DNA from: Patescibacteria group bacterium
GTDB lineage: Bacteria > Patescibacteriota > Patescibacteriia > UBA9570
Length of the DNA: 64,000 nt
Direction of reading: 5' to 3'
NCBI GenBank assembly: GCA_041660305.1
Contig: JBAZWO010000002.1
Location: 4,739 to 68,738, forward strand
In this document: positions 32,577 through 34,716 of the stretch, in pieces
Layout: each line of letters begins with the position of its first letter
Position numbering within the stretch: the first letter of the stretch is position 1
Notes under the pieces: generated by a model
What the model saw: the letters and a program-made list of their open reading frames with translations, nothing else
What the model was told of the DNA's origin: nothing
Database searches by the model: none
Program-made: the position numbers and the translations under genes

Positions 32577-32687
32577 TTACCTGCTGCGAATCATTAATGC
32601 TTCGCACTAGGAAATGCTCTTTATCGTCACGCTTGGCTTGGGGGCCGGGGGCGGGAGATCAGGTTGAGCAGGGACCTGTTGGCTAGC

Positions 32688-34577
32688 TTAGCGGTGTGGG
32701 CGAGGATCCTCTTCCTTGGTTGTCATATCAACCGGCTCGAGGATCCGAACCGTGCCGAGTGTCAGCGCCTCAGAGGACAGTTTCTCGCTGGTCGAGAACG
32801 CAAAGAGCAGGTTGTCTGTCTTCTCGAGGCCAATCATCTCAGAGCGGTATACCGTGAAACTAAGGTTCCACCCGGGGGTTGTGGGCCGGTATGTTCCAAC
32901 AGTGGTGAACCCATGGGTTGGCCAACTGTTATTGCCCGAGCTGCATTCGGGCGGAGCTGATGTGAACACCCCATAGCTCACCAGAGCTCGGGTTTCATCC
33001 CAAACCTCAAGACCATCCGAGCATGGCTCGGTGTTGTACGTTCCCACGTCGAACTGCAAGAGAGTATTATCTGTGATCTCCACGTTGATTGGTACCGAAA
33101 TTAAGTCCCCGAACTCTACAGGTGTGTAGATCATCCCATATCCGGCCAAGCTAATTGCCTCGTCAGCGGCTGGGTTCAGGATGGCTACGGTGTCATACCC
33201 ATTGCAGTCCTGATCGATCTCATCGGCCCAAATTTCCGTAGCACCGGGGTAGACGCTCGCATCCTGGTCATCACAGTCTGACCCGTCGCAGGCAACAGCG
33301 ACATACGAATCGCCGTCCTGGTTCTTCGGAAGATCCTGGCCATCACAGTCCTGGTCGATCCCGTCTTCACAGTCCTCTTTGGCGTCCGGATGAATGTTCG
33401 CGTTAGTGTCGTCGCAGTCGAGGTCATTGGTGGCGTAACCCGCCACCGTGGCTGAGCAGCTCGCGGTGTATGCGGCAGCGCTTTTGCCATAGCCATCCTT
33501 GTCGGCATCTGGCCAGAGCCAGAAAACAACATCCTCATCCACCTGACCATCGCAATCATTGTCCTTGCCGTCACATACTTCCGCAACGGTGGAGTCATCA
33601 ATTTTGCCATCACAGTCATTGTCCTTCCCGTCACAGGTCTCAGGAGCGTCTGGGTAGATAGTCGGGTTGGTATCATTGCAGTCGCCGCTCACGGCCGTAT
33701 AGCCGGTAGGCTGCGTGCAGGCTGTTTTGCTGATTCCCGGATTTCCATAGCCATCTCCATCCTGGTCTCTATACCAGATGGGGTTGGTGAGACCATCGCA
33801 GTCCTGATCAATGCTGTCGCAGAGCTCTGTGGCGTTTGGATGGGTAGTGGCGTCGTCATCATTGCAGTCGGGACCACCGACTGTCATGGCTTCGTAGCCA
33901 TCACCGTCCACGTCGGTCTGGTCGGTGCTATCGCAGTCCTGATCGATTCCGTCGTAGGGGATTTCGGTCGCGTCTGGGTAGATAGTTGGGTCTCGGTCGT
34001 TACAATCCTCTATGAAGGAAAACTGCTCATCTGAGAACCACCCATCGCCGTCCGCGTCGCTGTTGTCTAGATAGTCACAGTTCTGATCGATGCTGTCGTA
34101 AGGGATGTCTTCGGCGCCGGGGTAGATTTTCGGATCGGCATCGTTGCAGTCGTCGCCGCAGGTTGTTACGCCTGCGTGACCGTCGTGATCGGCGTCGACG
34201 CCATCAACCCAGTCACAGTTCTGATCGATCCCGTCGCAAACGTCCGAGGCACCGGGGTAGATCGCAGGGTCTGCGTCGTTGCAGTCACCCTGCGCCTCGG
34301 ACACGTGATCGCCGTCGTTGTCGGTGGTGTCCACGTTCTCGTCGACCAGGCCATCGCAGTCATCGTCGATCTGGTTGTAGATCTCGACCGCGTCGGGGTG
34401 GATGGACGCGTTCTGGTCGTTGCAGTCACCCATCTCTTCCGAGTAGCCGTCGCCATCGTTGTCGATGGTCGATGGGCATCCTTCTTCCGAGATTCCAAGT
34501 TGGAACACTAGGGCTAGGGGACTCAAAACACGGAGCGCCGTTCGGAGAACGGCGGGCATAAGGGAGTGTCGCTTCAT
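32688..34577 (-). CDS. GC-rich island 1: exported protein with eight Cys/Asp-rich MopE-like (putative metal-binding) repeats and a unique C-terminal domain
   Basis: The ATG at 34577 is preceded by AAGGAG 7 nt upstream. Signal-peptide-like N-terminus MKRHSLMPAVLRTALRVLSPLALVF. Eight units fit DxDGDG...DC(N/D)Dx(D/N)xx(I/V)(H/Y)P(G/D)AxE..D.IDQ(D/N)CDG. The composition is much more GC-rich than the flanks. Confidence 0.75.
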   Translation of the reverse strand: MKRHSLMPAVLRTALRVLSPLALVFQLGISEEGCPSTIDNDGDGYSEEMGDCNDQNASIHPDAVEIYNQIDDDCDGLVDENVDTTDNDGDHVSEAQGDCNDADPAIYPGASDVCDGIDQNCDWVDGVDADHDGHAGVTTCGDDCNDADPKIYPGAEDIPYDSIDQNCDYLDNSDADGDGWFSDEQFSFIEDCNDRDPTIYPDATEIPYDGIDQDCDSTDQTDVDGDGYEAMTVGGPDCNDDDATTHPNATELCDSIDQDCDGLTNPIWYRDQDGDGYGNPGISKTACTQPTGYTAVSGDCNDTNPTIYPDAPETCDGKDNDCDGKIDDSTVAEVCDGKDNDCDGQVDEDVVFWLWPDADKDGYGKSAAAYTASCSATVAGYATNDLDCDDTNANIHPDAKEDCEDGIDQDCDGQDLPKNQDGDSYVAVACDGSDCDDQDASVYPGATEIWADEIDQDCNGYDTVAILNPAADEAISLAGYGMIYTPVEFGDLISVPINVEITDNTLLQFDVGTYNTEPCSDGLEVWDETRALVSYGVFTSAPPECSSGNNSWPTHGFTTVGTYRPTTPGWNLSFTVYRSEMIGLEKTDNLLFAFSTSEKLSSEALTLGTVRILEPVDMTTKEEDPRPHR

Positions 34578-34716
34578 CGCGATTCTCCTTTCACTATTAA
34601 TGACCAGCCAGCTTGCCACAGCTGAACCGGTCGTGGTAAGGGTGCCATCACAGTGATGCACCCAGGCTGTGAAGAAATAATATTAACTATTGTTTACTCG
34701 CAGCCGGAGTGCATTT

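Follow-up and report, generated by a model that had tools for sequence, protein, structure and literature searches.

A GC-rich single-gene island for a MopE-type repeat protein in an AT-rich Patescibacterium: a probable recent horizontal acquisition

The island between gyrB and tal

We analysed a stretch of 64,000 nucleotides (the window) of the contig JBAZWO010000002.1 from a Patescibacteria group bacterium and describe a GC-rich island, island 1, which is situated in the intergenic region between gyrB and tal. The island carries one intact gene, convergent with gyrB (30460-32493), whose product consists of a putative signal peptide, eight repeats of the MopE type and an orphan C-terminal domain (Table 1). 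A preliminary description, made from the sequence alone, had placed an abrupt change of base composition at about 32580-34700, and the sequence observations of that description, this change included, were all confirmed. The three 1-kb windows over 32001-35000 have G+C contents of 0.48, 0.555 and 0.50, compared with 0.33-0.42 for almost all others; in 200-nt windows the values are 0.51-0.625 at about 32500-34700 and 0.28-0.45 on both sides. Likelihood-ratio segmentation (56% versus 37% GC) assigned a log-likelihood ratio of 165 to island 1 with boundaries at 32625 and 34671, and gave a GC content of 0.372 for the part of the window outside the island.

The single open reading frame (ORF) on the minus strand from 34577 to 32688, its AAGGAG sequence seven nucleotides upstream of the ATG and its orientation towards gyrB are as reported before. 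The ORF finder also offered a GTG at 34661 as start; it was rejected because AAGGAG is absent there and precedes the ATG at 34577. The N-terminus had been called signal-peptide-like, and indeed the basic residues K2, R3, H4, R12 and R16 are followed by the sole hydrophobic stretch of the protein (residues 17-29), although this h-region is only moderately hydrophobic. Judged from these N-terminal residues, the protein would most likely be exported via the Sec pathway. The lipobox pattern [LVI][ASTVI][GAS]C was not found in the protein, the residues before C34 being ...SEEGC. The mature protein is very acidic, with 17.6% Asp, 145 acidic residues and a net charge of about -125, and several His are located inside the repeats.

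Both the number of modules claimed previously and their assignment to the MopE-type family were confirmed. Eight matches to the motif C[ND]D....[IVT][YH]P were located (residues 52, 99, 144, 192, 238, 300, 388 and 435), each preceded by a DxDGDG-type loop, and Pfam PF11617 (Cu-binding_MopE) matches in nine stretches with 276 bits (E=7.4e-84; gathering threshold 27 bits), the ninth stretch being an extra half repeat. PF11617 was the sole Pfam family matched at E<=0.1, and an NCBIfam scan of the protein gave no match. In an alignment with 67 homologues the canonical unit of about 65 aa reads WYxDxDGDGYG-x8-C-xxPxGYV-xxxx-DCDDxDxxxxPGAxExCDGxDNDCDGxxDE. Two of the island repeats are long units (residues 271-324 and 357-413), and the other six are short units of about 45 aa without the YG...C...GYV insert. 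Asp and Cys occupy nearly all of the invariant or near-invariant columns of this 68-sequence alignment, and Pro, Glu and Gly some of them; the columns of the core DC(N/D)D...P(G/D)A.E...D.(D/N)C(D/N)G are conserved also in an alignment of 33 sequences. The DNA sequences of the repeats are no more than 60-85% identical to each other. The array is therefore old and does not result from a recent expansion. An AlphaFold2 (AF2) model of two repeats (pLDDT 88) is coil-rich, as expected for small knot-like modules.

The remaining C-terminal part comprises 169 aa, in agreement with the non-repetitive, unrecognised region of about 170 aa noted earlier. It has no match in Pfam, NCBIfam or PHROG, and a word-index search of 5.8 billion clusters found none. 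When 1.84 billion representatives were searched exhaustively with phmmer, the protein itself was recovered together with three highly repetitive proteins only; these three were regarded as spurious, their scores being sums over 3-24 short stretches. The PDB sequences gave only noise (E>=0.17), and no relative was found in the non-repeat parts of the 67 MopE homologues (phmmer at maximum sensitivity) or in a scan of viral contigs. The codon positions of the tail (GC1 0.53, GC2 0.47, GC3 0.64) agree with a genuine coding sequence that shares the foreign origin of the repeats.

Table 1. Features of island 1, its surroundings and the two sister islands (positions in the window)
Feature	Position	Strand	Remarks
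GC-rich island 1	32625..34671		2047 bp, GC 0.569; maximum-likelihood boundaries
Island gene	32688..34577	minus	single intact gene, 629 codons and stop
Ribosome-binding site AAGGAG	34585..34590	minus	7 nt 5' of ATG; read from sequence
Putative Sec signal peptide	34491..34577	minus	residues 1-29; basic n-region and hydrophobic core VLSPLALVFQLGI
Eight PF11617 MopE-type repeats	33198..34463	minus	Pfam, motif and alignment
Repeats 1-4	34350-34463, 34209-34322, 34071-34196, 33927-34058	minus	
Repeats 5-8	33792-33914, 33606-33767, 33339-33509, 33198-33323	minus	repeats 6 and 7 of the long form
Extra half repeat	33546-33581	minus	EVCDGKDNDCDG, residues 333-344; ninth Pfam stretch
Orphan C-terminal domain	32691..33197	minus	residues 461-629 (169 aa), GC3 0.64; low-confidence prediction of an all-beta fold
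Terminator-like hairpin and T-run	32551..32568	minus	3' of the gene, in AT-rich DNA
Sigma-70-like promoter match	34833..34860	minus	TTGACA-16-TAAAAT, 11/12; consensus match only
Native hairpin repeat	32490..32542		just 3' of gyrB, about 80 nt outside the island 3' boundary (32625)
Sister island 2	38235..38932	minus	GC 0.543, GC3 0.61; orphan ORFs 38808-38966 and 38292-38753
Sister island 3	62499..63280	minus	GC 0.543, GC3 0.61; orphan lipoprotein gene 62598-63305

Foreign composition and integrity of the assembly

The compositional contrast extends to the codon usage, as a comparison with the flanks revealed. The GC content at third codon positions (GC3) is 0.67 in the island gene and on average 0.31 in the other 49 ORFs of the window, among which the only further outliers belong to two more islands. 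Every synonymous family is shifted, towards G-ending and C-ending codons together, with CAG, GAG, AAG and CTG raised too. Compared with the host genes, Leu is encoded by TTA in 3% versus 63% and by CTC in 38% versus 2%, Ile by ATC in 74% versus 9%, Phe by TTC in 83% versus 10%, Gln by CAG in 95% versus 25% and Glu by GAG in 65% versus 19%. By itself, the amino-acid composition raises the GC content of the gene by only about five points. GC3 amounts to 0.69 in the repeats, where C-ending codons dominate (third-position C 0.51), and to 0.64 in the non-repetitive tail; the untranslated flanks of the island are shifted as well (GC 0.53 for the 3' flank and 0.49 for the 5' flank, versus 0.35-0.37 farther out). 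The values for the three codon positions of the whole gene (GC1/2/3 = 0.60/0.43/0.67) correspond approximately to the Lawrence-Ochman regressions for a genome of about 57% GC, which would mean little amelioration.

The two sister islands show foreign codon usage with the same signature as island 1. The ORFs of island 2, which adjoins a tRNA-Asp gene (39142-39216), are in one frame with a single TAG (38808-38810) between them, and from its sequence island 2 may represent one imported gene with a premature stop, that is, a pseudogene; no family match was found for it, and its only homologue was the query itself (P0124). Island 3, situated between mgsA and gidB, codes for an acidic protein of 235 aa with the lipobox LAAC and is reproduced in the same context in ENA, JGI (3300014208) and Logan assemblies. 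Neither island obtained a Pfam, NCBIfam or PHROG assignment, and the donor searches gave self matches only. Three un-ameliorated, donor-less single-gene imports within 64 kb are compatible with a single unsampled donor lineage; that a streamlined genome should hold three of them is the most intriguing aspect of the locus.

GC-rich MopE-repeat genes were also found elsewhere. A metagenome-assembled genome (MAG) of 'Candidatus Uhrbacteria' (GCA_043808565.1, contig JAZDEQ010000036.1, here L089; genome about 0.39 GC) contains a single lipoprotein gene, P0059 (5473-8457), which combines MopE repeats with a lamin-tail domain (LTD). The gene is intact (994 aa), with GC 0.58-0.62 and GC3 0.74 next to neighbours of GC3 0.28-0.50, and the GC-rich stretch (5451-8700) includes its 3' flank. 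As in the window, a host from the candidate phyla radiation (CPR) possesses a lone, intact, GC-rich MopE-repeat gene with a putative export signal. P0059 differs by its approximately 12 long-form repeats, its lipobox VTGC and its lamin-tail C-terminus; its locus lies near a tRNA, a serine recombinase, a primase and a DUF5671 gene, unlike that of island 1, and the two proteins are only 36% identical. P0059 is therefore an independent acquisition and not an orthologue. Two adjacent MopE-repeat genes are furthermore present on an unclassified mid-GC contig (L091; ENA ERZ27250187 k141_1112400, 6579-11300), with GC3 0.81-0.84 versus 0.39-0.52 for the other genes of that contig. As a side observation, L089 has a second GC-rich stretch of 550 bp (2901-3450) beside another tRNA, with no called gene, no Rfam match and no homology to the islands of the window.

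Since the MopE genes of L089 and L091 are GC-rich too, a control on intrinsic GC content was needed. A Heimdallarchaeote (36% GC) encodes a MopE array of 1059 aa with a GC3 of 0.26, like that of its neighbours, and arrays in genomes of 62-69% GC are likewise host-like in GC3. High GC is therefore not intrinsic to the repeat, an explanation which we also rejected because the tail and the non-MopE islands are shifted in the same way. The earlier statement that such repeats are not expected in streamlined, AT-rich bacteria did not hold: the AT-rich 'Candidatus Uhrbacteria' MAG carries one, again as a GC-rich island, and the AT-rich Heimdallarchaeote encodes its array in native AT-rich codons.

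These comparisons bear on the alternative that the gene is native and old and that its GC content is kept high by a gene-linked process, for example GC-biased gene conversion among the repeats or, as a variant, selection for C-ending codons in a protein rich in Asp, Asn, Tyr and Cys. The recurrence of MopE genes as GC3 outliers in L089 and L091 would be in line with it, as would the dominance of C-ending codons in the repeats and the lack of a donor. However, the tail and the untranslated flanks are shifted equally, G-ending codons are raised too, two unrelated islands without repeats have the same codon usage, and the Heimdallarchaeote array is AT-rich. Moreover, a DNA identity of 60-85% between the repeats gives no sign of ongoing conversion. 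We regard a native origin as very improbable.

The second alternative, already raised in the preliminary description, is an assembly or binning artefact, in which a fragment of a high-GC organism was joined into the CPR contig. The abrupt compositional switch and the native repeat of about 50 bp near the 3' boundary would suit such an event. Yet both junctions are reproduced at 100% identity in three other assemblies: Logan SRR18595301 (L001, 5058 bp) spans tal-MopE-gyrB, Logan SRR6484324 (L002, 2952 bp) spans MopE-gyrB, and a 60.7-kb contig of ENA ERZ27249449 is identical over more than 20 kb of the window; the exact 629-aa protein is on record in the two Logan assemblies. In addition, the copies of the native repeat share fewer than 31 identical consecutive bases, according to a reading of two copies, the 5' junction has no repeat, and island 3 is reproduced likewise. 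A chimera was therefore rejected and can be considered virtually excluded. The three matching assemblies probably sample one population; they vouch for the assembly and not for a persistence of the gene in evolution.

GyrB is 60-69% identical to that of MAGs of Veblenbacteria, Uhrbacteria, Falkowbacteria, Komeilibacteria and Buchananbacteria, which we take to be the ABY1 class of GTDB. The host is thus an AT-rich, ultra-small Patescibacterium of the ABY1 type. Proteins of the window were also found in IMG 3300014208. This metagenome represents GW1, a leachate-impacted groundwater well of a landfill in Southern Ontario, in which Patescibacteria reach up to 79% relative abundance (PMC9723747).

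In the surroundings of island 1, the best promoter-like site lies 256 nt upstream of the ATG in native AT-rich DNA and is a candidate captured promoter. The native hairpin repeat downstream of gyrB belongs to an intergenic family with copies at 7341-7400, 21505-21541 (partial), 35680-35718, 37448-37508 and 61053-61098, usually just after genes; it has the form CCTCCTCTCCTCAAAGGAGAGGAGG or CCCCCTTCTCC..GGAGAAGGGGG, and its conserved tail is GGGAGGTGAGGTAG-like. The Uhrbacteria contig L089 contains a similar element, CCCCTCTCCC...GGGGAGAGGGGCAGGGGTGAGGG, at about 2900-2960, so that the hairpin may serve as a terminator or REP-like element throughout the clade. Another family of short repeats, ATCTGTGTAATCTGTGATTC-like and found in both orientations (19102-19129, 19586-19614, 29112-29160, 62341-62451), is mostly intergenic; its pheT copy (29112-29160) encodes the odd peptide YTDKYTDYTDK, and island 3 is bordered on its 3' side by several copies. 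Perfect GC-rich palindromes of 29-31 nt, GTAGAGACGCCCCGGCGGGGCGTCTCTAC and AGTAGAGACGCGCTGCAGCGCGTCTCTACT, are situated in pheT (29635-29663), gyrB (32203-32231), truB (37912-37942) and an intergenic region (13705-13735). Those within the essential genes are in frame and encode ...TPRRGVST..., in GyrB within a hypervariable linker, and they recall the Rickettsia palindromic elements, which insert into coding sequence. Right beside island 1, a gene of native composition (35725-37065, minus strand) codes for an exported protein of 446 aa, in which a CAP (cysteine-rich secretory protein) domain is accompanied by a weak Ig-like domain of the Big_5 type; this protein, too, is a candidate for a role at the surface or in interactions.

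Origin of the island and possible role of its product

The foreign composition extends over synonymous sites, the unique tail and the untranslated flanks, and the island is therefore best read as acquired from a source of higher GC, as had been proposed; this part, considered alone, we hold to be highly probable. The repeat motif does not recur elsewhere in the window, and of 80 gyrB-centred loci, largely from Patescibacteria, not one contains two or more motif matches. In these loci (GTDB species) neither tal nor a MopE gene was found near gyrB (0/80); the order pheS-pheT-gyrB is conserved in several relatives, and the region 3' of gyrB is not syntenic.

A search of 5.8 billion clusters yielded 7294 matches besides the protein itself, all confined to the repeat region, with about 66% query coverage and 29-43% identity. 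The best match with composition correction switched off (P0025) is 44.9% identical over 450 aa. The variant 'E(I/V)PYDGIDQDCD' of repeats 3 and 4 is common to P0025, P0026, P0039, P0011 and P0051. P0025 and P0026 are compositionally native in genomes of about 64% GC, and P0011 and P0094, which both carry the 'PYD' variant, are annotated as proteins of Myxococcota MAGs. A Myxococcota-type affinity, suggested in the preliminary description, thus receives modest support, the closest arrays being in high-GC genomes. The origin in a high-GC host or neighbour that had also been envisaged was not substantiated: no donor was found, the best array is 45% identical and the tail has no relatives. Since a recent transfer without a known donor would be odd, an unsampled donor is implied.

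From these observations we propose that an AT-rich ABY1-type Patescibacterium of landfill groundwater acquired a single gene from a donor of about 55-65% G+C, too recently for the codons to have drifted towards host usage. The gene would have landed in the gyrB-tal intergenic region without leaving detectable mobile-element scars; uptake of DNA, illegitimate recombination and use of a host promoter are plausible steps. Eight small modules of the MopE type, each consisting of a DxDGDG loop and a C..C..CDG knot, would make its product an extended and very acidic stalk, which calcium and disulfides would stabilise. On this stalk the 169-aa, beta-rich domain would be presented as a head that binds some extracellular or cell-surface ligand. 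To the complete reading, that is, recent horizontal acquisition of an exported, calcium- and disulfide-stabilised stalk with a binding head, we assign a probability of roughly 0.7. Its functional part, taken separately, is tentative and falls somewhat short of even odds.

The best available argument for a stalk comes from the homologues, in which the array is fused to C-type lectin, fibrinogen-C, lamin-tail, PPC, RCC1, FG-GAP, ThuA and T9SS tail domains. The occurrence of the same array with so many C-terminal domains suggests a stalk or spacer with a variable, usually ligand-binding, head. Prediction of the structure of the island tail had been proposed earlier; the single-sequence AF2 model contains about ten beta-strands, and its Foldseek matches (E about 0.01-0.1, TM 0.3-0.38) include the ColH collagen-binding domain, CBM35/CBM6 and the PP2 lectin. 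The resemblance to beta-sandwich binding modules is a hint only. The intact ORF, the ribosome-binding site and the N-terminal position of the sole hydrophobic segment were counted in favour of function.

Several points weigh against the proposal. The tail model has a low confidence (pLDDT 47.6) and none of its fold matches is significant (E>=0.01). While the foreign composition, the soundness of the assembly, the repeat family and the orphan state of the tail are shown by the data, the signal peptide, the binding of calcium, the disulfides, the binding role, expression and the kind of donor are inferred. The Cys of the protein add up to an odd number, 29, and a motif that would anchor it to the cell was not recognised. 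The codon mismatch with the host may limit expression through its load of rare codons, and the in-frame stop of island 2 indicates that such imports can decay. Concerning the transfer itself, neither an integrase nor a tRNA target, target-site duplication or terminal repeat was detected at island 1, where the flanks share no words longer than 9 nt; mobile-element scars or boundary motifs common to the three islands were not found either, and the island proteins have no viral relatives among the viral sequences compared. The nearest gyrB in the 80 loci is only 69% identical, and such relatives are too distant to show an empty site; in the exact-protein look-up all contigs with an identical tal or gyrB carry the island. 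Finally, neither a donor nor a near-identical homologue was found among the 5.8 billion clusters or, for the tail, among the 1.84 billion representatives.

Some of these points would equally suit a gene that was acquired in the same way and is now functionless, decaying cargo, poorly expressed and neutral or slightly deleterious. In addition to the mismatched codon usage and the TAG already present in island 2, all three island genes are orphans or part-orphans, and the population appears clonal across samples (100% identity), with no evidence of purifying selection. On the other hand, the 629-codon ORF is intact and has a good ribosome-binding site, the core C[ND]D....[IVT][YH]P, preceded by a DxDGDG-type loop, is preserved in every one of the eight repeats, and another CPR MAG keeps its 994-aa MopE+LTD lipoprotein gene intact. 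We regard mere cargo as unlikely.

CPR bacteria (Patescibacteria) are thought to live attached to other cells, yet hosts and attachment molecules have been established for a minority of lineages only. The repeat protein, which is intact, recently imported, putatively exported and equipped with a unique head, offers a concrete candidate for a molecule of host interaction. The pattern of a GC-rich MopE gene occurs here, independently in the 'Candidatus Uhrbacteria' MAG and on the unclassified contig L091. More generally, AT-rich CPR episymbionts might repeatedly capture GC-rich surface-protein genes, including those for MopE-repeat stalks with variable heads, from their higher-GC hosts for attachment or mimicry, a speculation that we consider rather improbable. 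If it were true, un-ameliorated single-gene islands, of which there are three here, would be fossil fingerprints of the host lineage. Given two more imports of the same composition within 64 kb and a GC-rich MopE gene in another CPR MAG, compositional islands may be a cheap route to the donor or partner lineages of uncultured symbionts, and their interest would rise if they were tied to a host lineage.

Comparison with known systems

The preliminary description had referred to the repeats as metal-binding, and the family bears the name of MopE of Methylococcus capsulatus, which is, like CorA of Methylomicrobium album, a secreted copper-binding protein. We thus considered whether the gene was acquired as proposed but codes for a scavenger or buffer of copper or another metal, like MopE/CorA of the methanotrophs, and not for an adhesin-like stalk. 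The only significant PDB sequence match of the protein is indeed MopE* (2vov), to residues 2-46 of which one repeat aligns (phmmer, E=3.7e-5). The first 24 residues of MopE* are required, though merely for weak Cu(II)-IMAC retention (PMC3423442), and the 145 acidic residues and the His within the repeats would also be consistent with metal binding. However, the high-affinity Cu(I) site of MopE* (His132, His203 and kynurenine) is part of the beta-domain, and the N-terminal 46 residues are invisible in the crystal (PMC3423442). The segment common to both proteins is disordered or cleaved there. The island protein lacks the whole Cu(I)-binding beta-domain (residues about 47-336 with His132, His203 and Kyn), to which no homology was found, and phmmer against the PDB revealed no similarity to the rest of MopE or to CorA, a second stretch scoring -3.4 bits; it is not a MopE/CorA orthologue. 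Its conserved ligand-like residues are Asp, typical of calcium, and not His, Met or free Cys, and CaCl2 stabilises MopE* (PMC3423442).

As the PF11617 motif lies outside the solved copper site, the family name is no evidence of copper binding, which for the island protein is not supported by sequence comparison, and the label metal-binding was not sustained. A role as metal scavenger appears improbable. The PF11617 model is known for its poor specificity. Thousands of proteins bear the label 'copper-binding MopE' on the basis of a segment that is not part of the solved copper site, which calls for caution in annotation.

The other relationship put forward earlier, to thrombospondin type 3 repeats, did not stand up either. 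In these repeats Asp loops are interleaved with Cys in an extended, calcium-wire-like design. The island protein has no match to PF02412 (TSP_3) at E<=0.1; the DxDxDG-type motif is alike, whereas the two differ in the spacing of the Cys and in the PGAxE element. Among solved structures, a similar module is present only in the N-terminal segment of the large subunit of acyloxyacyl hydrolase (AOAH; PDB 5w7a and related entries). It matches the island protein in sequence at 'DCNDSDKTVYPG...DSNCNG' (E about 0.4-0.6) and also heads the Foldseek matches obtained with the model of two repeats, with an rmsd of about 3 A and 32-36% identity across 53-56 columns.

With respect to gene transfer, hundreds of islands and single-gene transfers, accounting for up to 13% of genome length, have been reported for groundwater Patescibacteria; these were mostly CPR-to-CPR and not recent, with non-CPR donors documented (PMC12455944). 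There the donors are within the data, whereas none of the databases searched here contains the donor of the island, whose composition is un-ameliorated.

The closest known system is formed by the PF11617 repeat proteins themselves (NCBI 'MopE-related protein'), a large, uncharacterised family abundant in Myxococcota, Bacteroidota and others. They have the repeat unit in common with the island protein, a DxDGDG loop followed by DC(N/D)DxDxx(I/V)(Y/H)PGAxExCDGxDxDCDG, and also the arrangement of an N-terminal signal, putative in the island protein, a repeat array and a differing C-terminal domain. The island protein deviates in its shorter array, with six of eight repeats in the short form of about 45 aa without the 'YG x8 C xxPxGYV' insert, in its tail, which has no relative in any homologue, in its best identity of only 45%, and in being encoded on a compositional island of an AT-rich CPR genome. 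Horizontal transfer into CPR bacteria and MopE-repeat proteins are both already known, and the locus is no new kind of system. What the locus adds is a PF11617 protein with a novel head domain on a compositional island of a CPR genome.

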